Translations under genes and position numbers: made by a program
Shown here: positions 7,733 to 25,600 of the stretch, in pieces
How positions within the stretch are numbered: the stretch's first letter is position 1
Layout: each line of letters opens with the position of its first letter
NCBI GenBank assembly: GCA_031364845.1
Contig: JANLWX010000196.1
Span: forward strand, 1-27,325
Direction of reading: 5' to 3'
Origin: Candidatus Eiseniibacteriota bacterium
GTDB taxonomy: Bacteria > Eisenbacteria > RBG-16-71-46
DNA: 27,325 nt
Notes under the pieces: model-generated
The model's input: only the letters and a program-made list of their open reading frames with translations
Database searches by the model: none
What the model was told of the DNA's origin: nothing

Positions 7733-9208
7733 CTAGTTCTTGAGGTTGCCGAGCGGCCGCAGGCGCACGGTCGGTTTCACCACGCGGTTGCGCTCGAGGC
7801 ACTCCATCACGAGATCGATCGGCTCGGCCGAGCGCATCGGAACCTCCGAGCGCCGCACGATCTCCGCGTTCTTGCCGCGCGACATCTTGAGCCGCAGCAC
7901 CGAACCCGCTTCCTCGCCGAGACGGTCGTGTTCGCGGAAGTGCTCGATCAGATTGCCGGCGCCGTGATCATAGGAGGACAGGCGCTGCTCGTCGCCTCCG
8001 TCGAGACCGATGCCGAGGTACGACGCCACATCATACGAGCCGGCCACGATCGCGGGGCCTCCCGGCGTGAGCCGGCAGGCGTTGTGGCGCGCCACCCATC
8101 CGTGGCGGCCGCCCCACGTCTCTTCGTTGATGCCGTTGTGCGGAATGTCGCACAGCAGCTCGGACTTCACGTTCGGTGAGATCGCCTCGTTCAAGCCGTC
8201 CATGATCGCGCGCACGGTGCCGAGCCGGTAGGCGTAGCCGAAGTTGAGCGCCATCGCGAGCGCGCGGCGGAACAGCTGCCCTTCCTCGGAGCGCACCGGG
8301 AACGGCGTCCAGCGGTTCTGGCGGAAGTGCATCGCCCACGCGCGGGCCGGGTTCGTGCGGCCGAAGCGCTGCACGAAGTGGAAGAACAGCTTCGACATGA
8401 AGAACATCGGGACGCGATGCGACTTGAGCTTGGTGCGGCGCGAATAGTGGTGGAGCAGCGTGCCCGAGAACGGTCCGGGTCCGAGGTGGTACATCACGAC
8501 CACCTGTCCCTCGCGCAGTCCCCACGTGTTCGCGGAGGAATCGAGCACCTTGTCGACGACCTGCACTTCGAGGAAATGGTTGCCGCCGAAGTTGAGTCCC
8601 ATCTCGGAGCGGCTGAAGCGCGTGGTGAGCAGGTGGATCGGAACCACCTCCTCCGCATCGACCTCGTCCGCGCCGCGCACGACGCCGCCGTTTTCCATGC
8701 GCCCGACGGTTTCCTCGGAGAAGCCGTAACGGCCGGTGAGGCCGTGGCCGCCTTCGACCAGCACGCGCCGCAGTTCGTCGGTCGTGATGCTGTAGCGGTT
8801 GCCGTCGAACGGATGCGCCGCGGAGTTCGCGTTGACCTTGGTGAAGAACGCCGTCAGCCGCTCGGCCGTGAGCCCCGACGCATCGATGTCGGTGACGACC
8901 ACGCCCATGCCGTCGTTGACCGCGGCCGAGGTGAACTCGGGCACGATCACGTCGCGCGTGGTGACCGCGATGCTGGACGGAATCTCCATCATCTCCTTCT
9001 GGTGCACGTCCGGCAGCGCCAGGATCTCATCGACGTACGGGAGTTGCGCCATCTCGGCGAGCGAGCGGTCGATGAGCTCGTTGTTCTCGATCCCGAGCGA
9101 CAGGGACTTAAGCTTCGAATTCGGTTCCACGATCCGTCCCGCCGGCGCCGAACGTGATCCGGTCCGATCCGAAACGTTGCCCAACACCGAAAGCCCCGAG
9201 TGCGACAT
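7733..9208 (-). CDS. Divergent RtcB-family protein (RNA 3'-phosphate ligase fold, 491 aa)
   Basis: Ordered RtcB motifs: LPDVH, GGNHFLEVQVV, VMYHLG, DIPHN, PAIVAGSY, DHGAG and C-terminal RLRPLGNLK. GAGGAG RBS upstream. Confidence 0.88.
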   Translation of the reverse strand: MSHSGLSVLGNVSDRTGSRSAPAGRIVEPNSKLKSLSLGIENNELIDRSLAEMAQLPYVDEILALPDVHQKEMMEIPSSIAVTTRDVIVPEFTSAAVNDGMGVVVTDIDASGLTAERLTAFFTKVNANSAAHPFDGNRYSITTDELRRVLVEGGHGLTGRYGFSEETVGRMENGGVVRGADEVDAEEVVPIHLLTTRFSRSEMGLNFGGNHFLEVQVVDKVLDSSANTWGLREGQVVVMYHLGPGPFSGTLLHHYSRRTKLKSHRVPMFFMSKLFFHFVQRFGRTNPARAWAMHFRQNRWTPFPVRSEEGQLFRRALAMALNFGYAYRLGTVRAIMDGLNEAISPNVKSELLCDIPHNGINEETWGGRHGWVARHNACRLTPGGPAIVAGSYDVASYLGIGLDGGDEQRLSSYDHGAGNLIEHFREHDRLGEEAGSVLRLKMSRGKNAEIVRRSEVPMRSAEPIDLVMECLERNRVVKPTVRLRPLGNLKN

Positions 9209-9226: not shown

Positions 9227-10756
9227 TTACGATCGAGGTCCGGCGGGCCGTGCGGCCGCCATTCCCGGAATACCGAACGACGCGAGCATGCCGCGCATCA
9301 GCCGCAGCTCGTCCGGCGTGAACGCCCGCACCAGGAACAGCAGTGCGACGTAACTGAACGCCCCTCCCACGACCACGACCGCGAGCGGCGTGGCGCGCAA
9401 CGCCCACACCACGGCCGCCATGCCGGCGGCCGCGAGCGCGGGCCGCACGACGTAACCGAACAGCTGAGCGACCGGGACGTACTTCGACAGTGCGATCTGG
9501 CACATCACGAGGATCGCGATCTCACCCGCGAGCAGCGCGTAGCAGGCGCCGGCGAAACCCTGCCCCGGAATCAGCAGCGCGCCGATGCCGACGTTGGCGA
9601 CGAGCCCCACGATCACGGCCTTCAGGTACACCTTCTGCAGATCGATCGCGGCGAGCACGTAGCGGGACATGAGGTTGATGAAGATGAACGCGAGCCCGAG
9701 ACTCATGAGCTTGAGCGTGAAGCCCGCCCGCGCGAAGTCCGCGCCCTTGAACAGCAGCGGAATGACGCGTTCGGAAAGCATGAACAGTCCGACCATGAGC
9801 GGCAGCGTGACCACCAGCTGATACTTGGACGTGCGCCGCAGCGCCGAGGCGAGCGCGTCGTGTCCGCGCTGGGCGCGGCGCGCGAGTGCCGGAAACGCAG
9901 CCATGCTGAGCGCGGTCGAAATGAAGCCGAGCGGCTGCGACAGCATGTAGCCGACGTTGAACAACGCGACATCGGTCTTGCTCGCGAGCGCCTGCAGCAT
10001 CAGCACACCGATGCGGCCGTACAGCACCACCACGAACATCGCGAGACCGAACGGCAGCGCCTGCAGCACGAACGCCTTCAAGCGCGGCCAGTCGGGCTCG
10101 AACACCGGACGGTAGAACTGCCGCCGCACCATCCACACGCCGATCCCCACGCGCAGCAGGAACGCGGCGAGCGCGCACGAGACCAGCCACGTCAGCGAGA
10201 CCTTCATTCCAATGCCGACCCAGATCAGGCCGAACCACACGACATGATTCAGCAACTGCAGCCCCGCCTCGAGGTCGAGGCGCTCGTGGGCGCGCAGGAT
10301 CCACACCGAGACGTCCTGGCTGAAGTCGATCAGCGCGGTCGCGCACACCACGGTGATCAGCGCTGCCTTGAGCGGATCGAACATGACCCATGCCGATCCC
10401 GCCACGCCGACCAGGATCACGACCGAGATCGCACCCTTGATCATGAGCGCATCGCCGTAGTACCGCGGTCCCATCAGGCGGTCTCGCGCGATCGACTTGG
10501 TGATCATCACGCCGGCCCCAAGATCGCCGAGGCTTCCGATCAGCGGGATGAGCGCGTAGTAGTAGACGTACTCGCCGTATCCGACCGCGCTGAGATAGTT
10601 GCCGAGCATCACCATCTTGGCGACGTTGATGAGCGCGATGAGGACCTGCGCCACCATGCGGAACGAGAAGTTCTTGCCGATGCGCGCTGCAGTGCTCGAC
10701 GACATGCCGGCGGACATCACCGGCGGTCCCGACTCCGCGGGGATCGGCTCGCTCAC
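9227..10756 (-). CDS. wzx: Wzx flippase (MOP/PST family)
   Basis: 509 aa, about 12-14 hydrophobic segments, KNFSF..AQ / YG.Y.Y / DLG..V...K.IAR N-terminal pattern; GTGA overlap with the upstream GT stop. Confidence 0.9.
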   Translation of the reverse strand: MSEPIPAESGPPVMSAGMSSSTAARIGKNFSFRMVAQVLIALINVAKMVMLGNYLSAVGYGEYVYYYALIPLIGSLGDLGAGVMITKSIARDRLMGPRYYGDALMIKGAISVVILVGVAGSAWVMFDPLKAALITVVCATALIDFSQDVSVWILRAHERLDLEAGLQLLNHVVWFGLIWVGIGMKVSLTWLVSCALAAFLLRVGIGVWMVRRQFYRPVFEPDWPRLKAFVLQALPFGLAMFVVVLYGRIGVLMLQALASKTDVALFNVGYMLSQPLGFISTALSMAAFPALARRAQRGHDALASALRRTSKYQLVVTLPLMVGLFMLSERVIPLLFKGADFARAGFTLKLMSLGLAFIFINLMSRYVLAAIDLQKVYLKAVIVGLVANVGIGALLIPGQGFAGACYALLAGEIAILVMCQIALSKYVPVAQLFGYVVRPALAAAGMAAVVWALRATPLAVVVVGGAFSYVALLFLVRAFTPDELRLMRGMLASFGIPGMAAARPAGPRS

Positions 10757-11946
10757 GGCTTCACCGCGTGCGACAACACCGCCTGGGCGGCCACACCTTT
10801 GGTACGCAGCGTCTGGCGATAGACGGTCGCCAGCGACTCGACGATCTGAGCTTCGTCGAACTCGGCGAGCACGACTTCGCGCCCGCGCCGGCCGAGCTTC
10901 GTGCGCAGTTCAGGATCCGCCGCGAGCCGCGCGAGCTTCTCGGTCAGTGCGTCCGCGTCGCCGTACTCGATGAGATAGCCGGTCTCGCCGTCGCGCACCG
11001 TCTCCTCGGTCCCGACCACGCGCGTGCCGATCACCGGCAGCTCCATGGCCATCGCCTCGAGCAGCGCCCGCGGGATGCCTTCCTTGACCGAGGTCAGCAC
11101 CGAGACGTCGGCCTGCGCCAGCAGCGCCGGAACATCGTCGCGGTAGCCGAGGAACTCGACGCGATCAGCGATGCCCATGGATTCGCACAGCGCCTGGTAA
11201 TCCGCCTTGAGCTCACCATCGCCCACCAGCCACAGGCGCGTGGCGATGCCGCGTTCCTTCAGCTGCTTCACCGACTCGAACAGCTGCGGATGGTTCTTCA
11301 CCGGCTCGAGCCGGGCGGTGCAGATGATGGTGAGCGCACCGTCGGGTGACGCGGCGCGCGGCATCGGATGGAACTGATCGACGTTGATGCCGTTGCCGAT
11401 GAAGCGCAGCCGCTCGGGCGGCACCAGCCCGTAGCGGCCCGCGAGATCGAGGTCGGTGCGGTTCTGGCTCAGCAGCATGTCGGTGAACATCCCGCACAAC
11501 TTCTCGGCGAGCGTGTAGAGATTCCGCATGATCGGATTCCACCGGTCGTGCACGTGCAGGCCATGGATCGTGTGGATGATGACCGGAACCCCCGCGAGCC
11601 GGGCGGCGACGCGCCCGAGGATGCCGGGCATCGAGCAGTGCGTGTGCACCAGGTCGATGCGCTCGCGGCGCAGGTACGCGGCCATCTCGAACGTCGCCAG
11701 CAGCATGCGCAGCGGATTCACGCCGCGCGGCATGCCGGCGGTCTCGACCGGGATGCCTTTGTCGCGCAACGGGCGGACATAGGGTCCGTCGATGCAGATG
11801 ATCCGGTTGTCGACGCCGCGGGCGCGCATCGACAGGACGCGGTTCTTGAGCAGCGTGTTCGCCGACGAACTCAGATTGATGATGTCCACCAGCCGCACGG
11901 CCTCACGGGCCACGGTGGCGGGCTGGGAACTGGTCGGTTCGGTCAT
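10753..11946 (-). CDS. Glycosyltransferase family 4 (GT-B, retaining), 397 aa
   Basis: DLVHTH, HTIHG, IGNGIN, ARLEPVKNH, EGIPRALLEAMA (EX7E). Start moved to ATG 11946. Confidence 0.93.
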   Translation of the reverse strand: MTEPTSSQPATVAREAVRLVDIINLSSSANTLLKNRVLSMRARGVDNRIICIDGPYVRPLRDKGIPVETAGMPRGVNPLRMLLATFEMAAYLRRERIDLVHTHCSMPGILGRVAARLAGVPVIIHTIHGLHVHDRWNPIMRNLYTLAEKLCGMFTDMLLSQNRTDLDLAGRYGLVPPERLRFIGNGINVDQFHPMPRAASPDGALTIICTARLEPVKNHPQLFESVKQLKERGIATRLWLVGDGELKADYQALCESMGIADRVEFLGYRDDVPALLAQADVSVLTSVKEGIPRALLEAMAMELPVIGTRVVGTEETVRDGETGYLIEYGDADALTEKLARLAADPELRTKLGRRGREVVLAEFDEAQIVESLATVYRQTLRTKGVAAQAVLSHAVKP

Positions 11947-12247
11947 CCGTTGACGATCCTGACTTCGATGGGTGGAGTGCCGGCCAGAGCCGGATTCCTC
12001 GAGTAATGGACTCAAGGCCCTGCCTCGCGGGACACGACCTTCGATGCAAGCGGAGCGACTTCGCGCGGACCCGAGGGAGGGCCGTACACGCAAGGGCCCC
12101 TCGACCAAGCAAGAAGCATAGCAGGACGCAGGACGTCGATTATCAGCGGTTCTGCAAGGATTGGCGCGGAATTCACCCCAACGCCCGGGCAGGTTGCACG
12201 GATGGAATCGTAAAATGCCCCGACGATTCCCGACGCCGATCCGGCGT

Positions 12248-13594
12248 TCAGGACCTGCGGACGCGGGGGGACGTGATCTCGGGCTCGGCGTTCTCTCCGC
12301 GCCCCATCCGCACGCTCAGCGCGCACAGGAGGGCGAGGAAGAACCAGAAGTGCCTGAAGTGGAGCTTCTCGACCGTGAACGAGTGGATCGAGCTGGCGAC
12401 AATGCCCGCGATCAGCGCGGCGGTCCAGGTGCCCGCGATCCCCGCGCGCCACCGCGATCCGGGTGCCGACGACCATGCCCGCCACGGCCGCTGGATCGCG
12501 GCCCAGATCATGACCAGCAGCGCGATGAGCGCGAACGGCCCGCGCTCGACGGCATAGCCGAGATAATCGTTGTGCGCTTCCTTGCCGTAGTAGGAATCGG
12601 CGCGCTCGCGGGTCGCGATCGAGAGCTGGAGGAACTTGCTGTTGCCGGGCCCGATGCCGAGCGGCGACTGCTCGTAGCGCTGGCGCAGCTGGCCCCAGAT
12701 GCGCAGGCGGCTCTCGGAACTCTTCCCAAAGCGTCCGGCCACGGTCTGGCTCGCCGCAACATCCAATCCGCGCTCGCCGACGCCGAAGCCTTTGACCACC
12801 CACACCCCGAGCGCGCCGAGCCCCGTGACGACCAGCACCGCCGCGACCAGCGTGAGCCTGGAGGCGCGCCGCGTGAGGGCGCGCACGATGAACCACGCCC
12901 CGAGCCCGCCGACCAGCGCCAGCATGCCGCCGAGCGACTTGGACGCGACGATCCCGAGCAGGATCGCTCCGATCGCGGGCCACCGCACCACACGGCTCAC
13001 TTCGCCGCTCAGGCTCGCGATGACGAAGAAGCTCAGCACGAGATAGTCGGAATAGATGTTGGCGTTGCCGAACGTCGCCGCCGCGCGCTCACCCCTGGGG
13101 CTGAACAGGTCCGAGAATCCGTAGCCCTGGGACATCAGCGCCACGACGCCGTAGAGAGAGATCGCCACCGACACCCACATCCACGCGATGCGCACCGCGC
13201 GCAGATCGTCGTGGGCGCCAAGCACGTTGACGAGCATCACGAACCACAGGAACAGATACGCGTCCTGCGCGATCGTGAACAGACTCTGAGAGGGTGAGCT
13301 GGCGTTGGTGATCGCGAGCAGGCTCGCCGCCGAGATCACGAACACGGGAATCAGGAACGGCACGGAGATCGCGGGTCGCCGCGCGAGCGCCATGATCGCG
13401 AACGCGGCGAGTGCCACCATGTTGAACACGTCGGCGATCGCGAGCTGTCCCGGGCCGATCGGGGCCACGAACGGGATCAGCACGACCGTGAGGATCAGAT
13501 ACAGGTGCCACATGCGCCCGCTCGCGGCGGCTTCGGGAATCGCGCGCTCGGAAGGAGCGATGGCGGGACGGACACTCGGCGCGTGGGCGCTCAT
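12248..13594 (-). CDS. wzy: O-antigen ligase/Wzy_C family protein, likely the polymerase
   Basis: Multi-TM protein with RAAATFGNAN, SRLRIW, LGIGPGN and AHNDYL motifs; ATGA overlap with the upstream gene. Confidence 0.82.
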   Translation of the reverse strand: MSAHAPSVRPAIAPSERAIPEAAASGRMWHLYLILTVVLIPFVAPIGPGQLAIADVFNMVALAAFAIMALARRPAISVPFLIPVFVISAASLLAITNASSPSQSLFTIAQDAYLFLWFVMLVNVLGAHDDLRAVRIAWMWVSVAISLYGVVALMSQGYGFSDLFSPRGERAAATFGNANIYSDYLVLSFFVIASLSGEVSRVVRWPAIGAILLGIVASKSLGGMLALVGGLGAWFIVRALTRRASRLTLVAAVLVVTGLGALGVWVVKGFGVGERGLDVAASQTVAGRFGKSSESRLRIWGQLRQRYEQSPLGIGPGNSKFLQLSIATRERADSYYGKEAHNDYLGYAVERGPFALIALLVMIWAAIQRPWRAWSSAPGSRWRAGIAGTWTAALIAGIVASSIHSFTVEKLHFRHFWFFLALLCALSVRMGRGENAEPEITSPRVRRS

Positions 13595-16023
13595 GACATC
13601 TCCCCCGCGCCCGGGCGCGAACGTTCATCGGGAACCATGACCGGCACGACTCGGATCCGATCCTCGAGTGTGGCGAGCAGCGTGCGCAGTTCGTCGCGGC
13701 CCTCGGCGCCGGCGCTGCCGTTGGCGGCCATGAGAATCTTCGGATGCGGCGTCTTCCACACCTTCTCGTGGTCGTTGAACAAAGTCTCGAACAGCCGCTC
13801 GCCGGGACGCAGCCCCGTGAACACGATGTCGATGTCGCGGCCCGGATGCAGTCCGTGGAGACGCGCGAGGTTCTTCGCGAGATCGAGAATGCGCACCGGT
13901 TTCCCCATGTCGAGCACGAATATTTCTCCCCCGGCCCCGAGCGTTCCCGCGTGAAGGATGAGTTGTACCGCTTCCGGCACCGTCATGAACAGGCGCGTGA
14001 CGTCGGCGTGCGTCACGGTGATCGGACCGCCCTTTTCGATCTGCTCGCGGAACAGCGGCACCACGCTGCCGCTCGAATCGAGCACGTTGCCGAACCGCAC
14101 CACCATGTAGCGCGGCTGGCCCGGGCCGTTCATGCCGAGCACGGTCAGCTCCGCGATCCGCTTGGTGAGGCCCATGGTGCTCACCGGCTCGACCGCCTTG
14201 TCGGTCGAGATCAGGACGAAGACCTCGGCTCCGGCGCGCGCGGCGGCTTCGGCCACCACGCGGGTGCCGATGATGTTGGTCTTGTGCGCCTCCGACGGAT
14301 GATGCTCCATCATCGGCACGTGCTTGTAGGCGGCGGCGTGGAACACGACCTGTGGCCGCGTGGCACTCATGACCTCGGCCACGCGCGTGGCGTCGGTGAT
14401 GTCGCCGATTACCGGAACGATCTCGAGCTCGGGCAGCACGGCCCGCAGCTCACGGTCGATGAAGAACAGGCTGGCTTCGTGCTTCTCGAACAGCACCACG
14501 CGCGACGGGCGCAGGGTCGCGATCTGACGGCAGATCTCGGAGCCGATCGATCCGCCGGCGCCGGTGATCATCACGCGGCGTCCGGCATAGGACTTGGCGA
14601 GTCCTTCCGGATTGGCCGCGATCGGCTCGCGGCACAGCAGGTCTTCGGGCAGGAGGCCGTGCGGGGCTGCGGCAACTCCGACGCCGGTCACCAGCGCCTG
14701 GAGATCCGGGATCGCGCGCACCGGCTTTTCGAATACGGCGGCGACTTTCAGGATCAGGCGCACGCCTTCGTCGGTTTCGCCCGCGATCAGGATCTCGTCG
14801 GGATCTTCGCGCCGGATCACCTCGGCGAGCTTCGACTGATCTCCCAGCACCGGAACGCCGTGCAGCGTCGTGCCGCGGCGATCGGGTGTGCGCTCGAGCA
14901 CGCCGATCACCGAGTAGCCCGACTGAGTCTCGCCGGCCATGGTCCGCAACACGCGGTCGGCCACATCGCCCGAGGCGATCAAGACGCCGCGCCGGGTGCG
15001 AGGGATCTCGGTGCGCAGCCGGCTCTGCCCGCGCCGCGCGATGCGCAGCGCGCCGAGGGCGACCACGCTCAGCATCAGGTCGATCACGATCACGCCGCGC
15101 GAGTATCCGGCACCCTGCGGAACGAACGCGAGCAGCGCCGCGAAGGCGATCGTACTTGCAAAGGCGGCGAGACCCGTGCGCATCAGCTCATCGGTGCCGG
15201 CGTAGCGCCACAGCGTCCGGTGCAGCCCGCTGGCCTGGAGGGCCAGGAGACGCAGCACCAGCAGCCACGGCAACATCGCCAGGCATCGCTGCCACTCGGC
15301 GTCCGGCACGCGCGGCTCGAAGCGGAGCACGAACGCCGCCGCGTTGGCTAGCGCGAACACCGCCGCGTGGATTGCGATCGAAAGCAGCATGCGGAAGCGG
15401 CCGAGCTTATCCGCGGTCCGGTCCGCAGCCGACTTGGGATACACGAGCACGACCAGCGTGGTCATGATGAGGCCGAGGTCGTAGATCAGCGACGAGCGGC
15501 GCACGTAGTCCTTCGCCATGCGGATCTTGTCCGGCAGCACCACGGTTTCGTAATAGCTCTCGGGATCCTTCGCGCGCGCGAGCATGCCCGATTCGTCGCG
15601 ATAGACGATCGAGGCGAGATCGGTGATGCCGGGGCGCACCTTGAGGACCTCGGCGTAGTCCTCGGGATACACGTCGACGTAGCGTTTGATCTCGGGACGC
15701 GGGCCGACGAAGCTCATGTCTCCGCGCAGCACGTTGAACAGCTGCGGGAGCTCGTCGAGCTTGGACTTGCGCAGGAACTTGCCGACCGGCGTGACGCGCG
15801 CGTCGTTGCCGATCGTCACACCGGGCCCGAGCCTGGGGGCGTCGACGACCATGGTGCGGAACTTGAGGATGTTGAACAGCCGCATTCCCTGTCCGACGCG
15901 CTTCTGCTTGAACAGGACGGGGCCGTCGCCCCCCATTTTGATCAGGAGAGCGACGACCCCCATCACCGGCAGAAGAACCGTGATCCCGAACGCCGAGACC
16001 ACGATGTCGAACAGCCGTTTCAT
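13591..16023 (-). CDS. Fusion of monotopic phosphoglycosyltransferase (PglC/WbgY-like, about aa 1-195) and membrane-bound UDP-HexNAc 4,6-dehydratase (PglF/CapD/WbpM-like)
   Basis: N-terminal MKRLFD, KFRTM, LDELPQLFNVLRGDMSFVGPRP; then TM helices and ITGAGGSIGSE, HAAAYKHVP, STDKAV, MGLTK, RFGNVLDSSGSVVP, GLRPGE in one 810-aa ORF. Confidence 0.92.
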   Translation of the reverse strand: MKRLFDIVVSAFGITVLLPVMGVVALLIKMGGDGPVLFKQKRVGQGMRLFNILKFRTMVVDAPRLGPGVTIGNDARVTPVGKFLRKSKLDELPQLFNVLRGDMSFVGPRPEIKRYVDVYPEDYAEVLKVRPGITDLASIVYRDESGMLARAKDPESYYETVVLPDKIRMAKDYVRRSSLIYDLGLIMTTLVVLVYPKSAADRTADKLGRFRMLLSIAIHAAVFALANAAAFVLRFEPRVPDAEWQRCLAMLPWLLVLRLLALQASGLHRTLWRYAGTDELMRTGLAAFASTIAFAALLAFVPQGAGYSRGVIVIDLMLSVVALGALRIARRGQSRLRTEIPRTRRGVLIASGDVADRVLRTMAGETQSGYSVIGVLERTPDRRGTTLHGVPVLGDQSKLAEVIRREDPDEILIAGETDEGVRLILKVAAVFEKPVRAIPDLQALVTGVGVAAAPHGLLPEDLLCREPIAANPEGLAKSYAGRRVMITGAGGSIGSEICRQIATLRPSRVVLFEKHEASLFFIDRELRAVLPELEIVPVIGDITDATRVAEVMSATRPQVVFHAAAYKHVPMMEHHPSEAHKTNIIGTRVVAEAAARAGAEVFVLISTDKAVEPVSTMGLTKRIAELTVLGMNGPGQPRYMVVRFGNVLDSSGSVVPLFREQIEKGGPITVTHADVTRLFMTVPEAVQLILHAGTLGAGGEIFVLDMGKPVRILDLAKNLARLHGLHPGRDIDIVFTGLRPGERLFETLFNDHEKVWKTPHPKILMAANGSAGAEGRDELRTLLATLEDRIRVVPVMVPDERSRPGAGEMS

Positions 16024-17249
16024 CTGCGGTAGCGGTTGGCGATCCAGGTCACGGCATCGATGACGTCCTGAGTGTCACGCTCGCTCATCTTCGCGTAGAT
16101 CGGCAGCGAGAGGATGTTCTTGAACACCGCGGAGGCGTTCGGGAAGTCCTCGGGCTTGAATCCATACCGGTCGCGCCAGTAAGGATGCAGATGCAGCGGG
16201 ATGAAGTGCACCGACACGCCGATGTTCAGCGCCACCAGCTGGCGGATGAACTCGTCGCGATCGATCGTGAGCTTCTCCGGATCGACCTGGATGACGTACA
16301 GGTGCCAGCCGTGCTCCTCGTGGTTGCGCGTGGTCGGGATGCGCACGCCCGGCAGCTTCGCGAACGCCGCGTCATAGCGGCGCGCGACGCCGAGCCGCGT
16401 CGCGTGGTAGACGTGGGCGTTCTTCAACTGCGGAATGCCCATCGCCGCCGCGATGTCGGTCAGGTTGTACTTGAAGCCCGGTGCCAGGATCTCGTACGAC
16501 CACGAACCGGCCTGCGTGTAGCGCTTCCACGCGTCGCGGCTCATGCCGTGGAGGCACATGAGGCGCATGCGCTCGGCGAGCGCGTCGTCGTCGGTCGTGA
16601 TCATGCCGCCTTCACCCGTGGTGAGGTTCTTGGTGGCGTAGAAGCTGAACACGGTGACATCGCCGATCGATCCGATGCGGCGGCCCTTCCACATGGTCGG
16701 GATCGCGTGTGCGGCATCTTCGACGATCTTGAGGCCGTGCTTGGCCGCGATCTCGAGCATCATGTCCATGTCCGCCGACTGCCCGGCGAAGTGGACCGGC
16801 ATCAGCGCCTTCGTGCGCGGCGTGATCTTGGCCTCGATCTGGGACGCGTCGATGTTGAGCGTGTCCGGCTCGCAGTCGACCAGCACCGGCACGCCGCCGA
16901 GATGCTCGATGACGGCGGCGGTGGCGGTGAACGTCATCGGCGTGGTGATGACTTCATCACCCGGCCCGACTCCGACCGCTTCGAGCGCGAGATGGAGCCC
17001 CGACGTCGCGGAGTTCACCGCAATCGCGTGCTTGGCACCCGCCCACGCCGCGAACTCGTTCTCGAACTGCTTCACCTTCTGCCCGGTCGTGAGCCATCCC
17101 GAGCGCAGACAGGTCATCACGCCCTCGATCTCTTCTTCTCCGATCAGGGGCACGGCGAACGGCAGGAACGTTTCGCGAATCTTGGGCAGCTCACCGTTCG
17201 TCTCGGCGGACGCGGGAGCGGCACCCGGAGTGGCGGTCGATCTTTCCAT
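16020..17249 (-). CDS. DegT/DnrJ/EryC1/StrS PLP-dependent sugar aminotransferase
   Basis: NSATSGLHLAL, EDAAHA, FSFYATKNLTTGEGGM (PLP lysine), GFKYNLTDIAAAMG. Confidence 0.95.
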   Translation of the reverse strand: MERSTATPGAAPASAETNGELPKIRETFLPFAVPLIGEEEIEGVMTCLRSGWLTTGQKVKQFENEFAAWAGAKHAIAVNSATSGLHLALEAVGVGPGDEVITTPMTFTATAAVIEHLGGVPVLVDCEPDTLNIDASQIEAKITPRTKALMPVHFAGQSADMDMMLEIAAKHGLKIVEDAAHAIPTMWKGRRIGSIGDVTVFSFYATKNLTTGEGGMITTDDDALAERMRLMCLHGMSRDAWKRYTQAGSWSYEILAPGFKYNLTDIAAAMGIPQLKNAHVYHATRLGVARRYDAAFAKLPGVRIPTTRNHEEHGWHLYVIQVDPEKLTIDRDEFIRQLVALNIGVSVHFIPLHLHPYWRDRYGFKPEDFPNASAVFKNILSLPIYAKMSERDTQDVIDAVTWIANRYRR

Positions 17250-18394
17250 CAGCGTCGGTATGCTCCGTAGTAGTACGCCAGGGTTTCATCGTGACGAATG
17301 TCCACCTGGTTCAACACCACACCCAGCAGATTCGCCCCGATCTTCACGAGTTGATCCTTCGCCTGCTGCACGATACGCAGGTCGTATCCTTCCGCCTTCA
17401 CCACCAGCAGCACCCCGTGCGCGACCGAGGTCAGCGCTCCGGTCGGACTCGTCACCGCCACCGGCGCGCAGTCCATCAGCACCACGTCGAACGCCTTCGA
17501 CATCCGGTCGGCGAGAATCGAGAACGGACGGTCCGCCAGATCGAACGGCACCGTTCCGCTGGTCAGGATCTTGAGATTGTCCATGCCGGTGTCGGTGAAG
17601 TAGCTCGGGATCTGGCTCGACAGGAACGGATGCTTGAGGTATTCGCCGAAGCGTCCGGTGATGAACGCGTCGATCGAGGAGCCTTCGTCCTCCACCACGT
17701 CGCGGGACGCGGCACTCGCGACATACGGCGTCGCGGTCTCGGCGAAGTGATACGCCGGGCGCTGGAGGGTGATGATGCGATGGAGACAGTCCTTGAGCTG
17801 CGTTTCGAGTGCCGCGTCGAGGTCGGCGTTGCCGACGTAGCCGAGTCCGCGCAGCACGTCGCCGATCCGCCGCTGGCCTTCCATCTGTACCTTGAGCGCC
17901 ACGTCGCGCTGCTCGGCCGTGATGCGTCCGTCCTGGACCAGCAGGTGGCCAAGGCGTCCGTCTTCGTCCTGCGAGCCGCCCGACAGGCTGGTGATCCGTC
18001 CGCGCTGGAACGCGATCTGGAATTCGTCCGCGCCCTGCTTGACCGTGAGCATGCCGGTCTTGGTCTGGGCGCGCAGCAGTTCGATCCAGTCGCCGATGCC
18101 GAACTGTTCCGGATTCTCCCGAGCGAGGTCGATGCCGTAGATCTCGCCCAGCAGATTGCCGAGCCCGCGGCGGTTCTCGACGCCGAAGCGTTTGTGAAGC
18201 GCCGGCTTGTAGGGATCGGCATCGATCAGCAGCACGCTCTGACGTCCCGAGCGCGCGAGCGCGCGTCCGAGATTCGAGGTCACCGTCGACTTCCCTTCAC
18301 CGGGACCGCTGCTCGTGATCACGAACTTGCTGAGTCCCTTGGCGAGGAACGGCTGCAGCGACGACGCTAGAGGCTGGTATGCGGCGGTATCCAT
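17249..18394 (-). CDS. Stand-alone BY-kinase (CpsD/CapB/Wzc C-terminal type) with internal DUF4388 + MshEN insertion
   Basis: Walker A GPGEGKST, Walker A' LLIDAD, Walker B DVVLMD, GVVLN and C-terminal Tyr cluster YYYGAY; an extra segment of about 175 aa between A' and B. Confidence 0.88.
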   Translation of the reverse strand: MDTAAYQPLASSLQPFLAKGLSKFVITSSGPGEGKSTVTSNLGRALARSGRQSVLLIDADPYKPALHKRFGVENRRGLGNLLGEIYGIDLARENPEQFGIGDWIELLRAQTKTGMLTVKQGADEFQIAFQRGRITSLSGGSQDEDGRLGHLLVQDGRITAEQRDVALKVQMEGQRRIGDVLRGLGYVGNADLDAALETQLKDCLHRIITLQRPAYHFAETATPYVASAASRDVVEDEGSSIDAFITGRFGEYLKHPFLSSQIPSYFTDTGMDNLKILTSGTVPFDLADRPFSILADRMSKAFDVVLMDCAPVAVTSPTGALTSVAHGVLLVVKAEGYDLRIVQQAKDQLVKIGANLLGVVLNQVDIRHDETLAYYYGAYRR

Positions 18395-18398
18395 GGGG

Positions 18399-19749
18399 TC
18401 ACGCCTTCGGAATCAGGCCCATGACGGGCAACTGGAGGTAGTCGTCGACATCCTGCGGAGTCCGGATCGTCCGGCGCAGGTATTCGCGGAGGAAGGCGAG
18501 CCCGGTGCCGATCGTGAGGCCGGCGAACAGGCAGACGATGAAGTTGAGCAGCTTGCGCGGACGCACGGGGCTCGAGTTGGCAGCGGCGGGTTCGATGACT
18601 TCGACCAGCGGTCCGCGCGCCTGCCCGGTGATCTCCGCTTCCTTCAACTTCGTGAGCAGCGCGTTGTACAGCTCGCGCTGATTCGTCACTTCGCTCTCGA
18701 GCGTGGCGAGGTTGCGGCTGGCGTTTGGATCGTCCTGCGGCGCGAGATTGCGCGCGCGCGTCGGCCGCGTTCAGCTCGGCGCGGGCGGCGGCGGCGGCGT
18801 CTTCGAGTTCGCGGCGGATGTTCGCACGGATCGATTCGTTCTCCGACTCGAGCATCACGAGCCGCGGGTGGCGGTCCTTGTAGATTCCGCGCGCCTTCGC
18901 GAGTTCGGTCTCCGAGTCGAGCAGCTGCTTCTTGAGCGCATCGAGGGCGGCGCTGCGCGCCGGCAGGCGCTCGAGGTCGATGTTCTGCGACGCCGCGGCG
19001 TCACGCAGACGCGCATAGCGCTCGGCGGCGCCGGCGCGATCCCCGCTCGCCTTCACGTGCGCCGACGCCTTCTCGGCCGCCTGGAGGCTCTGGCGGACTT
19101 CCTGGATCTGCGAAGTGAGGTAGGTGACGAGATTCGAAGAGCCGGCGCTGCGCTGATCGACCTGATACTGGACGAACATGTCGGCCACCGTGTTCGCGAT
19201 CTGCTCGGCCGAGCGGGGCTTCGAGTGTTCGACGTGAATGTTCACCAGACGCGTGTCGCGCACCGGCTCGACGCTGATGTGAGTCAAGAGCCAGTCGACC
19301 TGGCTCTGCGGCACGGCACGCGCGAGCGGATCGCCTGTATCGGTCGCTCCGCCCATCTGGGCCACGGCCGCGGGGGCCGTGCGCCGGCCGAACAGCGTCT
19401 TGTACCACGGCGCTCCGGGTTTCTCGTTGCCGGCCAGCACGCCCTGCTCCCGCAGCGTGCCCACGACACGCGCGAGCAGCTTGCGGTTCGTGATCAGCTC
19501 GGCCGCGGTATAGAGCGCGAGATTGTCCGACTGTGCAGTCGGGCTCTCGAGCATCTCCCCCGTCAGCAGCGAGCGGGACGGCTCGCGCGAAATCTGGATA
19601 CGCACCGTCGCCCGATAGACGGGATCGGTGATGGTGTTGAGCATCATCGCGAATGCGGCCCCGCACACTACTGAGCCCAGCACCCACCATTTTCGTCGCA
19701 CGAGGATGCGACCGTAGTCGCGCAGATCCATTTCAGAAGTTTTGGCCAT
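18399..19749 (-). pseudogene. GumC/Wzz-type polysaccharide co-polymerase, split by a frameshift near 18750-18760 (real or assembly artefact)
   Basis: ATG 19749 MAKTSEMDLRDYGRILVRRKWW + TM1, YKDRHP motif and coiled coil in one frame; the C-terminal LYNALL..., PVRPRKLLN + TM2 + LPVMGLIP lies in another frame (18399-18689 ORF). Confidence 0.8.
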
Positions 19750-19757
19750 GGTCTCTC

Positions 19758-20684
19758 TCAGTATCGGCGGTGGGGCACGTCGACTCGATCGCCGGCGGCA
19801 ACTGCCAGATCCGGCGTTTTTCCACGGCGCACTTTGGACAGATCGACCTCGATCGTGCGCGTCTTTCCATTTTCGTTTCGCAACACCTTCACGCGATTGA
19901 GCGCCGCGTAGTTCGTGAACCCGCCGGCGAGCGTGCACGCGCTCAGCACGGTCAGGCCTTCCTGGGCGTTGTAGGCGCCCGGATTGCGCACCTCACCCGA
20001 GACGAACACCTTGCGCGCCTGATTGCGCACTGTGACCAGCACCTGCGGGTCGACGAAGAATTCGCGCGCGAGGATCTCGCGCATCTTGCCCGACAGCTGG
20101 AACGCCGTGGTTCCGGCGACGGCGATCTGGCCGATGAGCGGACTCGTCAGCGTACCCGCCGGCGAAACCTCGGCCGTGAAATCCTCCTGCTTCTCGCCGC
20201 CCGCGTAGATCGCGACGTTCACCATGTCGCCGGGGCCGAGCTGATAGGAGACTTCGTCCGATGCCGCCGCGGGATTGGAACTGCCGGGGAACAGCGAGAC
20301 GACGACCGTGTCGCGGTGTTTCGTGGGGTCGGAGACGACGAGCCGGATTTCGTAAGTGGTGCCGGGAGGTCCGTCCTGCTTCGGGACGAACGTCGCGTTC
20401 TTACCTTTGAAGCTCAGAATGCGGGCGCGCTCCTGGCCGACGTTGAAGGCATCGACGTCCCACTGGTAGGTGAGCTTGTCGTCCTTGTCCTCGTTGTCGG
20501 TGGCACGCCCGACCAGCGAGACGACCGCACCCGGCGTGTATGTCGAACTGTCGCGGGGCGACTCGATCTTCGCCACGGGCGCGGTTCCCCGGCCGCCCTT
20601 CTTCGCGGTCGCCGCAAATGCCGGCGCCGCCATGCACGCGATCAGTGCCACCAGGAACCCGCCCAACAGGATTCGCTTGCCCAC
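19758..20684 (-). CDS. Polysaccharide export protein (OPX/Wza-like, Poly_export + SLBB) with N-terminal Ig/PKD-like domain, 308 aa
   Basis: GTG 20684 with GGAAGGAG 8 nt upstream; signal peptide; YQLGPGD, LTSPLIG, VFVSGEVRNPGAY, LAGGFT, GDRVDVP. Confidence 0.88.
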   Translation of the reverse strand: MGKRILLGGFLVALIACMAAPAFAATAKKGGRGTAPVAKIESPRDSSTYTPGAVVSLVGRATDNEDKDDKLTYQWDVDAFNVGQERARILSFKGKNATFVPKQDGPPGTTYEIRLVVSDPTKHRDTVVVSLFPGSSNPAAASDEVSYQLGPGDMVNVAIYAGGEKQEDFTAEVSPAGTLTSPLIGQIAVAGTTAFQLSGKMREILAREFFVDPQVLVTVRNQARKVFVSGEVRNPGAYNAQEGLTVLSACTLAGGFTNYAALNRVKVLRNENGKTRTIEVDLSKVRRGKTPDLAVAAGDRVDVPHRRY

Positions 20685-20776
20685 TTCTTCCACTCCTTCC
20701 GTAACGGTCCGGTTTCCGGATGGCGTCTCCGGCCCGTTGCTACGCGTCATTCGCACGGCACATTCCCTCGTATGCT

Positions 20777-21985
20777 TCATTCCTGCCAAGGCCTTGCAGT
20801 CAACGTCAGTGTGAAACGGTTGCGGTCGAAGGCGGTGGCACTACCCGACTCCGGAGCATCCTGACGCATGTAATCCCAACCCAGTCTGCCGGTCAGCCAC
20901 GTTCCGAACGGTGCCGAGAATCCGGCCCCCGCCCGCCACAGGTCGATCTCCGGGCCCTGCCCGCGCAATGCCCGCGTGCGCCCGAAGCTTCCGCCGACAT
21001 CGATGACCTGTCCACCGTACAGCGTATCGCGGACCGTCGCCGAGCCCCGGCGCGTCAGCGTCGCCACGCGGTACTGGCCGCCGTCGGCCTCGATCGACGT
21101 GTCCCACGCGAGCGTGGCGGACCGGCCGTCCCGGTCGACGTCGAACGATGCCTCGACGGTCGTTGCAATGTCATCGGCCACTCGCAGCCGAAGTGTGACC
21201 GGAGCTTCGGGGTCCCCCCCTTTTCGGGTGAGTCCGAACGCCAGCGCCGGGCGGACTTCGACCCCGCCCTCGGCACCATAGTCGACCTGAACCCGGCCCG
21301 CGGTGTATTCGGTGGAAAACATCGCCGAGTGCTCGCGCTCGAGCGAAACGGTCTGGTAGTCGGCCCGCAGGGTCCGCTCATCTCCGATGCGCAACTCGCG
21401 GCGGCGGATCTCCAGTGTTCCCTTGGTGATATCGGTTCGGATCGGATACAACCTGCCGGATGCGTCGATCGCGTTTCCGTCGGCGAGCCCGCTTTCGTCG
21501 TAGTCCCACAGCCGATGACGGATGCCGGCGCCGATCCGGCGGAAATCCGCGCTGGCCCGGGCAAACAGATTCGTGACGTCGCCGCGCGTGGTCACGACCC
21601 CATCCTGGAAGTCGATCGGATCGACCGAGCGCACATAACGACCCCGCGCTTCGAGATGATTGAAGACCCCTGGCCTGTGCTCGAACGCGAGCGAGGCCAG
21701 GTCATTGCGCGAGGACGGGGCATTGGTGCGCGTGTACGACGTGAACGCGGTCCTGGCCTTCAATTCGTAGGACGTGATGGGATCGCGATTGAAGATCGTG
21801 AGCCCCGGCCGCACCGCGGTCACGAAGTCCTCGGAGCCTTCAGCGCGATGGAGGACGTTGTCGTCGTGGCGTCCCTCGACCTCGAGTTCGGGCAGCCACG
21901 TCACGGCATGCGCCGCCAGCGGCCCGGCGCACAGCACGCCGGCCCCGAGCAGCAACCCTGCCCACCTACCGCTCCAAGAACGCAC
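20777..21985 (-). CDS. Putative outer-membrane beta-barrel of the polysaccharide export system
   Basis: Signal peptide ending AHA; N-terminal HDDNV motif; alternating beta-strand pattern; C-terminal RNRFTLTLTA strand; 402 aa; directly upstream of the OPX gene. Confidence 0.75.
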   Translation of the reverse strand: MRSWSGRWAGLLLGAGVLCAGPLAAHAVTWLPELEVEGRHDDNVLHRAEGSEDFVTAVRPGLTIFNRDPITSYELKARTAFTSYTRTNAPSSRNDLASLAFEHRPGVFNHLEARGRYVRSVDPIDFQDGVVTTRGDVTNLFARASADFRRIGAGIRHRLWDYDESGLADGNAIDASGRLYPIRTDITKGTLEIRRRELRIGDERTLRADYQTVSLEREHSAMFSTEYTAGRVQVDYGAEGGVEVRPALAFGLTRKGGDPEAPVTLRLRVADDIATTVEASFDVDRDGRSATLAWDTSIEADGGQYRVATLTRRGSATVRDTLYGGQVIDVGGSFGRTRALRGQGPEIDLWRAGAGFSAPFGTWLTGRLGWDYMRQDAPESGSATAFDRNRFTLTLTARPWQE

Positions 21986-22393: not shown

Positions 22394-24199
22394 TCATGCG
22401 GCGGCACGAACCAGTCCGAGCCGCGGAATCAGGATCGTGAACTCACTGCCCTGGCCGGGCTCGCTGTGCACTGCGAGGGTTCCGCCATGGGCTTCGACGA
22501 TCCCGCGCGCGATCGCGAGCCCGAGCCCGAGGCCCGCCGAGCGGAACTCGAGCGTGTTCGACGAGTGGTGGTGCATCGAGTCACGCACCGCGAACGCTCG
22601 CGAGAAGATCGACTTCTGCTGGTCCGGCTCGATCCCGATCCCGCTGTCGGAGACCTCGACCAGGAACCCACTGGGAATGTCCTCGGCCCTCACCACGATG
22701 TGGCCTCCGTCGGGCGTGAAGCGGATCGCGTTGCGTACCAGATTCGCGATCGCATGCGTGAGTCGCGGTCCATCGATGAACCCGCGCCCCAGATCGGGCG
22801 CGATCCGCGGCTCGATCGTCAGCTCGCGGCCGGGCGCATCGCCGAGTGCGAGCTGGAGTGCCGCATCGACCACCGGCGCAATCTCGCACTCTTCGCGATA
22901 GAGGATGAGCCGCTCGCCTTCGATCTGGGCGATGCGCGTCGCATCCTCGGTGAGCCGGATCAGGCCCGAGATGCTGTCGTCGATCGCGGACAGCGCCTTC
23001 TGCTGGCGGTCGGTCACCGGACCCAGCGCGCCCTGATAGAACAGATCGTGGAACCCTTTGATCACCGTGATCGGCGTGCGCAGCTCGTGCGAGGCGACGT
23101 TGATGAACTCGGTCTTCAGCCGCGCGACTTCCTGAAGGCTCGTGATGTAGTCGCGTTCGCGGTTTCGCATCTCGCAGAATCGGGCGCCGAGATAGCCGAT
23201 CTCGTCACCATTGCCCGACGGAATCGGCGCGTCGTATTCGCCGCGCTCCATCGCCTCGGCGCCGCGCACGAGCTGGAGCAGCGGCCGGGTCAGGCGCTCG
23301 GCGGTGAATGCTCCGAGAAATGCGGCGATCGCGACCGCGATCAACGCCAGCGTCATGAGCGCGCGCTGCGCGCGATGCAGGAACGCCATCTCGGCCTCGA
23401 GCGAGCGCTGGATCACGAACCAGTGCGCGTTCTCCACCCGCGTCCCCGGCAACGGGCGCGCGAGCGTCACCCACGTGTTCTCGGCACCGCGCACTTCGAC
23501 CGGCGCGGAGGCCGCGCCGCCGGGCATCGCGGCGAGCCCCGCGAGCAGACTCTGAATGTCGGCGTCCGCGGTGAGCGAGCTGCCGCTGCTGGCCCCCTTC
23601 GTGACGAACGTGACCTCACCGCGCGTGAGGATGTGGAGTTCACGCGCCAGCTCGGCACCGACCTCGGCGCCGAGTAGCAGCGAACCCGCGAGCACGCCGT
23701 CGACCCGTACCGGCGTGAGCGTCACCTGCCACTGCGTGCCGTCGCCGTCCAGCAGTCCCGATATCTCCTCGCCGCGGAGTGCGGCTTCGTTCAGCCACGT
23801 GCGGTCCGCGGACTTCGCATCATCGGTGCCGACCGAGGCGAGCACCCGTCCCTGGCGGTCGCGGACTTCGAACAGATCGGCGTGCGTGATCGCATGGAAG
23901 TCCTCGGCGATGTCGCGCACGGTGGCGCGCGCGCCGGCGCTGGCAGCACCACCCGGCAGTGCGACGGCCGAGAAGAACCGCGGGTCGCGCGTGATGACAC
24001 GCCCCATTGTCGAGAGTCCCACACCGCGCTCGGCGAACTGCTTGTCGAACACCAGGGCCGCGCGCATGAGCGAGTCGTTGATCTCGGTGCGCACCTGGGC
24101 CGTCACGGCCCGTCCGAGATAGACGAACGCGACGATGCCGAGCACCGCGGGAACCACGACGGTGAGCAGCAGCAGGCGCCAGCGCAGCGGGAAACGCAC
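22394..24199 (-). CDS. Membrane sensor histidine kinase (periplasmic Cache-like domain, HAMP, HisKA, HATPase_c)
   Basis: Two TM segments, HAMP (LTRPL...GDEIGYL), SHELRTP, NLVRNAIRF, DSGIG, GLGLGL, GQGSEF. Confidence 0.95.
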   Translation of the reverse strand: MRFPLRWRLLLLTVVVPAVLGIVAFVYLGRAVTAQVRTEINDSLMRAALVFDKQFAERGVGLSTMGRVITRDPRFFSAVALPGGAASAGARATVRDIAEDFHAITHADLFEVRDRQGRVLASVGTDDAKSADRTWLNEAALRGEEISGLLDGDGTQWQVTLTPVRVDGVLAGSLLLGAEVGAELARELHILTRGEVTFVTKGASSGSSLTADADIQSLLAGLAAMPGGAASAPVEVRGAENTWVTLARPLPGTRVENAHWFVIQRSLEAEMAFLHRAQRALMTLALIAVAIAAFLGAFTAERLTRPLLQLVRGAEAMERGEYDAPIPSGNGDEIGYLGARFCEMRNRERDYITSLQEVARLKTEFINVASHELRTPITVIKGFHDLFYQGALGPVTDRQQKALSAIDDSISGLIRLTEDATRIAQIEGERLILYREECEIAPVVDAALQLALGDAPGRELTIEPRIAPDLGRGFIDGPRLTHAIANLVRNAIRFTPDGGHIVVRAEDIPSGFLVEVSDSGIGIEPDQQKSIFSRAFAVRDSMHHHSSNTLEFRSAGLGLGLAIARGIVEAHGGTLAVHSEPGQGSEFTILIPRLGLVRAAA

Positions 24200-24200
24200 G

Positions 24201-24911
24201 TCAGAACCTCAGATCGATCGCCGTGCCGAACCGGTGCAGGTCGACGGGCCAGCTGCGTTCCCCATACCGCGGGTGCCACGCCCGCACCCGGTACGATCCG
24301 GCCGGCAGCTCGGGCAGCTCGAAGGATCCCTTGGCATCGGGACGCGTGAACACTTTGGATGGAGCCACGAATACGTAAGCCGACGAATCCGAGTGGAGCG
24401 TGCAGAACACGCGCACCGTGCCCGCCTTGTCGAAGCGCAGCGAGCGTTTGCCCCGCGGCGGAATCGAGCCGAGATCGAAGCGGCGCGCCGCCGACACGCT
24501 GAAGGCGCTGTGGTAACGGCGGTCGCGGTTGACGAAATCCACCGAGTCGCCGGGTGCGACCGCGACCACGCGCGGCGCGAACCCGCCGGACTCGAGCCCG
24601 ACCTGGACGCGCGTCAGACGCGGCGGAACCGGAGCGGCGGCGTGCTTCGCCGTCTTGGACTTCGTGTGGGCGACCGGCGGCGGCGGCGGCGGATTCTTCA
24701 GCGGGTCGACGTAGATGATGTACTCCGACATCGACGCGGCCGTGGCACCTCCGGGAGTGCGCAAGTGGCCCTGGATCACGCCGGGCCGCGTCGCCGGATC
24801 CTTCGCGGTCCTCGGAAGCGAGGGCATCGTGTTCTGCCCCGTGGTGGCGCACCCGCACAGCGCGAGCAGCAGCGCAATGGATGCGAATCGCAGCGGTGAC
24901 ACCGTGTGCAT
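24201..24911 (-). CDS. Lipoprotein with cupredoxin-like domain and carboxypeptidase-regulatory-like beta-sandwich, 236 aa
   Basis: ATG 24911 after GGGAG; lipobox LCGC; FAPRVVAVAPGDSVDFVNRDRRYHSAFS, FCTLH and GSFELPELPAGSYRVRAWHP. Confidence 0.75.
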   Translation of the reverse strand: MHTVSPLRFASIALLLALCGCATTGQNTMPSLPRTAKDPATRPGVIQGHLRTPGGATAASMSEYIIYVDPLKNPPPPPPVAHTKSKTAKHAAAPVPPRLTRVQVGLESGGFAPRVVAVAPGDSVDFVNRDRRYHSAFSVSAARRFDLGSIPPRGKRSLRFDKAGTVRVFCTLHSDSSAYVFVAPSKVFTRPDAKGSFELPELPAGSYRVRAWHPRYGERSWPVDLHRFGTAIDLRF

Positions 24912-24934
24912 CGATGGAATCTCCCTGACACCTT

Positions 24935-24967
24935 TAGTGTTCCGACCCCGAAGGATTCGGAACACTA
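24935..24967. promoter_or_regulatory. Perfect 11-bp inverted repeat (hairpin or operator) in the leader of the lipoprotein-kinase operon
   Basis: TAGTGTTCCGA-N11-TCGGAACACTA; a cUUCGg loop forms on the minus-strand transcript. Confidence 0.6.
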
Positions 24968-25153
24968 GCCTGATGACGCACGAACTGCCGTTCGAGGTTT
25001 CGGCCTGTGGAGGCGGCCGCTTGAGGACTCGCGGGCCGGGCAAATTGCACGCGTGGGTTCGGGAGGCGTCCGCTGGCGGTCGCGGAATCTTCCGACTAAG
25101 GTTCCGCGCGGCGGCGCATGGTTTCCGCGCGTCCCGCGTTCGAGGAGGATGGC

Positions 25154-25600
25154 ATGGTCATCGACTGGAACTGGGTGCTGCTCATCGTCGGAGCGCTCCT
25201 GGTGCTGGTGGAAGTCGCCCTGGGTGGTTTTGCCGGATTCGATCTGGTGCTGATCGGATCCTCGTTCCTGCTCGGAGGCGCTCTGGGGCTCGCGTTCCAC
25301 AGCACGCCGGTGGGATTTCTGGTGGCGAGTGCGCTGTGCCTCGCCTACATCGTCGCCGGACGCCGCTGGGTCCGCGATCGCATGCGGCATCAGCCGCAGC
25401 CTTCCAACATGGACGCACTGCTCGGTGCCCACGGACTCGTCACCGTCCGCATCGACGCCCAGGAACCCGGGCAGGTTCGCGTTCGTGACGAAGTCTGGCG
25501 CGCGGTCCCGGCGCCCGGAACCGGACCGTACGAAGCCGGCACTCGTGTCGTCGTTCAGAGCGTCGAAGGTGTCACCCTGCAGGTGAAGGAGTCCTCATGA
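25154..25600 (+). CDS. Short NfeD family protein (YbbJ-like)
   Basis: GAGGAG RBS before ATG 25154; hydrophobic N-terminus plus OB-fold [12 protein letters not shown]...[12 protein letters not shown] overlap with the SPFH gene. Confidence 0.9.

Follow-up and report, generated by a model that had tools for sequence, protein, structure and literature searches.

A BY-kinase-derived protein with a nested, predicted c-di-GMP-binding PATAN/MshEN module in a Wzx/Wzy polysaccharide operon of Candidatus Eiseniibacteriota

Timing of polymer length and export in Wzx/Wzy pathways falls to BY-kinases. The window (here, the whole 27,325-nt stretch of DNA analyzed) encodes a kinase of this type whose catalytic domain is interrupted by a PATAN/MshEN module, raising the question of whether c-di-GMP, a second messenger, could control polysaccharide export directly. 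We give a probability of roughly 55% to the reading that this nested module binds c-di-GMP and tunes the kinase of a Wzx/Wzy export system, and thereby polymer length or export.

The kinase gene, its insert and its operon

The gene and its parts, as delimited by its open reading frame, profile matches and structural models, are as follows.

17249..18394, minus strand: split-type (CapB-like) BY-kinase gene, 381 aa, with a PATAN+MshEN insert (ORF, profiles, model)
18143..18394, minus strand: kinase N-half, residues 1–84, with a degenerate O-motif helix, Walker A and Walker A′
18287–18307, minus strand: Walker A GPGEGKS with catalytic K35, in the N-half
18203–18223, minus strand: Walker A′ DADPYKP, without Arg, in the N-half
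17621..18142, minus strand: insert of 174 residues (85–258), gap columns in 46 ordinary BY-kinases, at the site of Wzc loop L-alpha5
17966..18106, minus strand: first part of PATAN/DUF4388, a helix and three strands (Pfam PF14332, models)
17798..17956, minus strand: tandem MshEN_N motif (alpha-clip), residues 147–199 (NF053729, 5HTL alignment, fold match)
17738..17797, minus strand: closing helix and strand of PATAN (Pfam, AF2 model)
17681..17725, minus strand: low-confidence linker, residues 224–238, pLDDT <50, varying across the family
17249..17620, minus strand: kinase C-half, with Walker B and the tyrosine tail
17462–17485, minus strand: Walker B VVLMDCAP, in the C-half
17258–17275, minus strand: tyrosine tail YYYGAY, in the C-half

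The initial annotation had read this gene as a BY-kinase interrupted by DUF4388 and a tandem MshEN module, and profile scans for all three matched above their cutoffs, confirming the insertion. Specifically, DUF4388 (PF14332) covers kinase residues 97–224 (E = 5e-13; 49.5 versus a gathering score of 25) and sits, in Pfam, within the CbiA-type P-loop of the kinase ORF; the BY-kinase model TIGR01007 reaches 117.4 bits (cutoff 108.05) in a match of two pieces; and NF053729, the NCBIfam model of the MshE-type c-di-GMP motif, matches residues 147–199 over all 53 positions with 42.7 bits (cutoff 38). The insert, defined by the columns absent from ordinary BY-kinases, lies close to the span of 17615–18145 proposed earlier, and the two 24-residue motifs joined by a 5-residue spacer hold up as well, with a gap-free alignment to residues 9–62 of V. 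cholerae MshE (5HTL; spacing 24 + 5 + 24).

Structure prediction gave the same picture. The AlphaFold2 model of the kinase, built from 105 sequences, has a pLDDT of 87.8; its modeled core matches the Wzc octamer 3LA6 with Z = 26.1 and an rmsd of 2.4 over 206 residues, and the modeled clip, a predicted four-helix bundle, matches c-di-GMP-bound MshE (5HTL) with Z = 10.6–10.8 and an rmsd of 2.0–2.4 over 59 residues, although for a helical bundle a Z near 10 is not conclusive by itself, so that the sequence motif bears the claim. For a model of the insert only, the top-ranked folds were MshE, PilF and GSPII-B, and no solved fold matched the PATAN strands in this search, whose rows covered mainly the clip. 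The kinase fold is thus predicted to be intact, with the insert forming a separate domain. Modeling two copies of the kinase together with c-di-GMP and ATP scored 0.00, a result that we counted neither way.

Both modules are known. PATAN is the same domain as DUF4388 (PMC12448109), and its alpha-clip has been likened before to the N terminus of pilus ATPases (10.1101/2021.06.11.447907). Regulators of the PatA type carry this domain with the same internal helical insertion, but the examples known so far are response regulators or free-standing proteins, whereas the PATAN domain of the window is embedded in an enzyme, with a clip that retains the ligand signature. Likewise, V. cholerae MshEN_N (5HTL) and T. 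thermophilus PilF GSPII-B/C share the 53-residue tandem motif and the four-helix bundle (rmsd of about 2 Å), but the module in the window has Arg at Leu25, no MshEN_C subdomain and a BY-kinase rather than a pilus ATPase as host; binding of c-di-GMP does not require the MshEN_C subdomain (PMC5013675).

The kinase gene belongs to a minus-strand operon in the order barrel, Wza, co-polymerase, kinase, DegT, phosphoglycosyl transferase-dehydratase, Wzy, GT4, Wzx, RtcB-like and CDP-alcohol transferase.

20777..21985, minus strand: putative outer-membrane beta-barrel partner (weak BBP2_2, TIGR03016 below cutoff; beside Wza in relatives)
19758..20789, minus strand: Wza-like polysaccharide export protein (Poly_export + SLBB)
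18399..19749, minus strand: polysaccharide co-polymerase, Wzz/CapA-type partner, about 450 aa (Pfam Wzz)
16020..17249, minus strand: DegT-family sugar aminotransferase (Pfam)
13591..16023, minus strand: fused phosphoglycosyl transferase and sugar dehydratase (Pfam)
12248..13594, minus strand: Wzy/O-antigen-ligase-like polymerase (Wzy_C)
10753..12108, minus strand: GT4 glycosyltransferase (Pfam)
9227..10756, minus strand: Wzx-type flippase (Pfam, NCBIfam)
7733..9208, minus strand: divergent RtcB-like protein, a conserved operon member (Pfam, related loci)

The kinase gene directly follows the co-polymerase gene in the window and in all 20 related loci examined around the 34 full-length matches, and its product is the sole BY-kinase found among the TIGR01007 matches examined in the genome (97% complete). 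The other match examined proved to be a Soj/ParA protein beside ParB; three further matches are weaker. The co-polymerase frame breaks near 18749, in a GC repeat. Since the contigs of all four runs of one study carry two extra bases at this position (contigs hide rare variants) and the gene is continuous in 20 of 20 relatives, the break is most likely an assembly error, and on the strength of the extra bases we dropped the idea of a pseudogene or phase-variable gene.

Several features of the wider locus were recorded in passing. The RtcB-like gene, which follows wzx and precedes the CDP-alcohol phosphatidyltransferase gene, occurs in 12 of the 20 related loci (several others end earlier). Its product keeps GGNHFLE, DxxHN and DHGAG and has AVNDGM at the metal-motif site, where RtcB RNA ligases canonically have a Cys-containing motif; it may be a GTP-dependent phospho-ligase for glycan or lipid. 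A genome search with this protein as the query revealed no other RtcB-like gene, and a literature search on this gene found nothing. One contig (loci L038 and L039, G156:C88) carries two such clusters ~21 kb apart, each with an insert-bearing kinase and an RtcB-like gene, and in genus g15 (L040, L041, L047, L048 and L050) the place immediately upstream of the co-polymerase is taken by a glycine-cleavage P gene, neither Wza nor a barrel gene being found there. An open-ended ORF at 3–6284 (−) of more than 2,090 aa encodes a beta-helix and, after it, numerous Ig-like repeats; its product may be secreted and bind or cleave polysaccharide, and large related proteins flank the operon in several relatives. 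Upstream of the operon lie a HAMP sensor kinase (22394–25043, −), a cupredoxin-like protein (25118–26472, +) and, beyond the latter, an NfeD/SPFH pair, all of them ordinary.

Distribution of the insert among homologues

The window comes from a metagenome-type assembly with one assembly error in the adjoining gene, which might suggest that the insert arose as a chimera of assembly or that its motif is due to chance. We found this reading to be almost certainly wrong. A homologue search and a 50%-cluster search yielded 265 proteins, a set biased toward clip-like matches because the window protein was the query; 179 of them have the kinase N-half, the insert and the kinase C-half (28 of these are Wzc-type fusions of ≥750 aa), and the rest comprise 46 proteins without the insert, 10 intermediates and 30 left out as fragments or weak scores. 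PF14332 is present in 118 of the best 120 homologues listed, and full-length matches occur in at least 30 of 206 genomes of the phylum among the matches listed. In addition, one independently assembled contig, possibly from the window's own source sample, covers positions 17000–20000 without interruption; no RNA data set was listed among the carriers of this sequence. Together, these homologues exclude the chimera that the initial annotation had named as a possible refutation. A locus search with the homologue alignment returned 79 loci, 10 of them full-length and the remainder ordinary kinases, and the same type of search with the single kinase protein as the query returned no matches. Named records of the window's clade are from Ca. 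Eisenbacteria, with single proteins from Rokubacteria and Verrucomicrobiales, and those of distant insert-bearing relatives are from Desulfobulbaceae and Desulfotignum.

The family is not uniform. Some relatives have no clip (P0137, P0162, P0183, P0202, P0219 and P0229), others lack part of it (P0102–P0104, P0107, P0108 and P0110) and P0131 is without the entire insert, indicating that the clip is dispensable in some lineages. P0138 and P0143 combine canonical kinase motifs with a perfect clip. In a kinase-only FastTree of 145 rows, presence versus absence of the insert required two changes on an unresolved backbone; the rows without the insert were top matches only, and P0241 and P0252, two of the 10 intermediates scored as having the insert, are not PATAN, so we read no single origin from this tree.

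The predicted c-di-GMP pocket

MshEN contacts the guanine bases through two leucine platforms (Leu25/29/39 and Leu10/54/58), the backbone of Gly11 and Gly40, Gln32 and Gln61 (PMC5013675). Scored with permissive residue sets that we chose from the MshEN and PilF papers, the clip of the window fits 11 of 12 ligand positions. The equivalents of Gly11, Gly40, Gln32 and Gln61 are kept (G149, G178, Q170 and Q199), as are Leu10, Leu54, Leu58 and Leu29; Leu39 is replaced by Ile, and the single miss is Leu25, which is Arg163. The initial annotation had noted a few hydrophobic positions changed to Arg or Tyr, and these changes are real but unequal: R157 and Y186 stand at positions without contact to the base, while R163 corresponds to the guanine-stacking Leu25 of MshE.

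On 53 dereplicated clips of the window's clade, Gly40, Gln61 and Leu10 are kept in 52/53 each, Leu58 in 49/53, Gly11 in 48/53, and Gln32 and Arg9 in 39/53 each. The Leu25 position is mostly Arg or Lys and is hydrophobic in 5 of 53 clips, Gln32 is replaced by His in 19 of 127 clade proteins and Pro at the Arg38 position is common across the kinase family. As a control, we used a stand-alone PATAN+clip protein encoded in the same genome, together with relatives from the phylum (50 loci out of 133 genomes, dereplicated to 24), a family of like divergence (identity 0.42 versus 0.44) that keeps the helical core but has lost Gly11, Gly40 and Arg9 in all 24 members. Because this family lost these residues at similar divergence, their conservation in the kinase clip reflects more than the needs of the fold, and the contrast, drawn from sequence comparison, is the best evidence for ligand selection on the kinase clip. 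The control protein itself (G000:C66:19102–19566, −; locus L057) has a clip of the non-binding type and is found in 133 of 206 phylum genomes.

An alternative use of the module is docking or localization: PATAN would anchor the export machinery at a partner such as a pilus motor or the cell pole, and the clip would play a structural part, bind weakly or leave the kinase unaffected. A cyanobacterial (Synechocystis) PATAN protein binds PilB1 and PilC, and the PATAN domain alone localizes to the membrane (10.1101/2021.06.11.447907, a preprint), partners of this kind being known for cyanobacterial members only; PATAN-only kinases occur, a form that fits an 89-member Atlas cluster of 360 aa; the genome has four further MshEN-like matches, mostly PilB/GspE-type by sequence; and Leu25 is replaced by Arg. 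However, few positions of the kinase clip are better conserved than the ligand-specific Gly11, Gly40 and Gln61, which the control PATAN family has lost, and we therefore regard docking as unlikely.

How far Arg at Leu25 would affect binding can be gauged from published variants. L25A and L25A/L29A MshEN retain a ligand stabilization of 9°C compared with 10°C for the wild type (PMC5013675), and no case of Arg at Leu25 appears in the available text of the MshEN and PilF papers (PMC5013675, PMC11731258). The non-binder XpsE carries I19R and L29R among eight listed changes (PMC5013675), and the window protein also has Arg at the Ile19 position. Changes at Arg9, Asp12 or Gln32 reportedly shift binding at most about fivefold (PMC5013675), PilF GSPII-B binds with 6 nM affinity with Lys and Leu replacing both Arg residues, and PilF GSPII-C, a c-di-GMP binder, has Pro at Arg38 (PMC11731258). 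It follows from the modest effect of Arg9 changes and from GSPII-B, which has neither Arg, that R147A, the variant proposed earlier for binding assays, would be a weak probe. Despite the Leu25 replacement, the residue pattern makes it probable that the insert binds c-di-GMP.

The genome has five GGDEF matches, at least three of which have an intact GG[D/E]EF site, but this co-occurrence, though necessary, does not discriminate, since all 206 phylum genomes have GGDEF. One GGDEF enzyme of the genome (G000:C200:13651–14121, −) has a GGDEF site and carries Ser at its Hypr position, spaced as in the Asn-Ser-Asp arrangement of GacA (PMC6456294), and is a possible 3′,3′-cGAMP synthase. This enzyme, together with the clustering of substitutions in one half-site (Leu25 to Arg, Gln32 to His in the proteins counted above), could indicate a pocket suited to another dinucleotide such as 3′,3′-cGAMP, which MshEN binds weakly (330 µM; PMC5013675). 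The Hypr assignment depends on a single residue, however, and the window protein keeps both Gly11 and Gly40, at which the backbone recognizes O6/N7 of guanine and would clash with an adenine (PMC5013675), making this specificity improbable.

Kinase motifs, proposed mechanism and meaning

BY-kinases are defined by, among other motifs, Walker A′ DXDXR and Walker B hhhhDXXP (PMC9800525). Counted on 121 proteins of the window's clade (6 of 127 were dropped, their Walker A not being locatable), the Walker A Lys is kept in 120, both Asp residues of Walker A′ in 119 and the Walker B Asp in all 121, and 101 of 119 have a C-terminal tail with at least three Tyr. In contrast, the Walker A′ Arg is found in 0/121 clade proteins versus 43/46 ordinary kinases and 28/35 other insert-bearing relatives, and the ring motif EX2RX2R in 0/121 versus 31/46 and 14/35, respectively. 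A second clade (n = 17) has likewise lost both, and in both clades the conserved PPNPSE loop preceding helix alpha7, which we infer to lie on the opposite ring face, is altered. Furthermore, the protein begins at helix alpha2 and therefore has no segment for the RK cluster. The O-motif serves as the dock for the phosphatase Wzb (PMC9800525). A crude pattern for in-frame LMW-PTP or CpsB motifs, which caught one of two known LMWPc genes, matched neither in the window nor in any of the 20 loci; the genome has no CpsB_CapC match, and its two LMWPc genes lie in unrelated contexts.

Compared with S. aureus CapB/CapA, E. coli Wzc and V. cholerae VpsO, the window protein shares the P-loop fold (Z = 25.7–26.1), Walker A, DxD, Walker B, the tyrosine tail and an adjoining co-polymerase gene, and, as in CapAB, kinase and co-polymerase are on two genes. 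The clade differs from these kinases in its 174-residue insert, the loss of EX2RX2R and of the Walker A′ Arg, the changed loop preceding alpha7 and the lack of a linked phosphatase among the genes found. The earlier claim of a tyrosine kinase is thus supported in part, by the BY-kinase fold, Walker A, Walker B and tail, while EX2RX2R and DxDxR are missing throughout the clade. Because these two motifs are lost, canonical kinase cycling is doubtful, and we file the protein as BY-kinase-derived rather than canonical; it is nevertheless likely to work like a BY-kinase.

The same losses raise the alternative that the clade protein is a c-di-GMP-responsive ATPase or a pseudokinase scaffold for the co-polymerase, not an autophosphorylating ring kinase. 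The joint loss of O-motif, Walker A′ Arg and PPNPSE loop in two clades, the start at alpha2, the phosphatase search results and the precedent of CapB1, an inactive BY-kinase (PMC3795738), are consistent with this view. However, conservation is strong for the catalytic Lys, the Walker A′ Asp pair, the Walker B Asp and the tail of tyrosines, and the tail in particular would be hard to account for absent phosphorylation, so that we consider a non-phosphorylating protein quite unlikely.

The insert falls between Wzc positions of about 586–588 and 592. In Wzc, I592 is part of loop L-alpha5; in the switch between open (inactive) and closed (active) states, this loop shifts along with helix alpha4, and it is linked to the ring faces (PMC11206214). 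Because the insertion site is this mobile loop, we infer that insert and kinase are coupled. In the mechanism that we propose, one c-di-GMP per subunit would bind the MshEN clip, the PATAN domain would transmit the ligand-induced change to L-alpha5 and the resulting shift in kinase state would tune polymer length or export. With the ring faces remodeled in this clade, the ligand state would likely outweigh the classic phosphatase-reset cycle. Going by what c-di-GMP usually does, we guess that the direction of control is activation of polymer output. Second-messenger gating, as first proposed, gains from the conserved architecture, the Wzx/Wzy operon and the selective retention of ligand residues, but the kinase of this clade lacks EX2RX2R and DxDxR. 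A stronger version, in which both canonical ring faces and the phosphatase dock are gone in the Eisenbacteria-type clade, c-di-GMP on the nested module has replaced the phosphatase-reset octamer cycle and the messenger itself sets the assembly and activity of the co-polymerase kinase, we consider unlikely; if true, it would give Wzx/Wzy polymer control an operating logic that is new.

The initial annotation had also described the architecture as one without known characterization, which our searches narrow. Methylobacillus EpsG, listed as 'MshEN_N - AAA_31', is a proposed chain-length tyrosine kinase and a predicted c-di-GMP binder (PMC5013675, Supplementary Tables 3 and 4). Like the window protein, it is a stand-alone BY-kinase in an exopolysaccharide cluster with an MshEN_N motif (the motif of the window matches positions 2–59 of the EpsG profile), but its MshEN is N-terminal with no PATAN listed, whereas that of the window is nested in PATAN within the catalytic domain; the window protein is also no EpsG member by profile (TIGR03029, 77.3 versus a cutoff of 313.8). 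E. coli NfrB likewise bears MshEN and belongs to a c-di-GMP-controlled exopolysaccharide pathway (PMC5013675, Supplementary Table 4) but is a glycosyltransferase, not a co-polymerase-regulating kinase. The literature searched held no binding or activity data for any family member, EpsG included, and c-di-GMP has no occurrence in the available text of a BY-kinase review (PMC9800525). The modules and the idea of a c-di-GMP-binding BY-kinase are thus already known, as is PATAN with its helical insertion, and the nested intra-catalytic layout appears in none of the open-access main texts searched; supplements and closed journals may hold more, given that the EpsG precedent itself is in a supplement. 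What the window adds is the control-family comparison and a clade with remodeled ring faces.

The nested kinase system is real, conserved and mechanistically plausible. The family comes with natural controls, namely canonical kinases with a perfect clip (P0138 and P0143), PATAN-only forms, the insert-less P0131 and two ring-remodeled clades, which makes both BY-kinase allostery and the 2016 EpsG prediction testable with soluble proteins. A kinase-borne site would link c-di-GMP, the main messenger in biofilm formation, directly and post-translationally to the Wzx/Wzy class of pathways.
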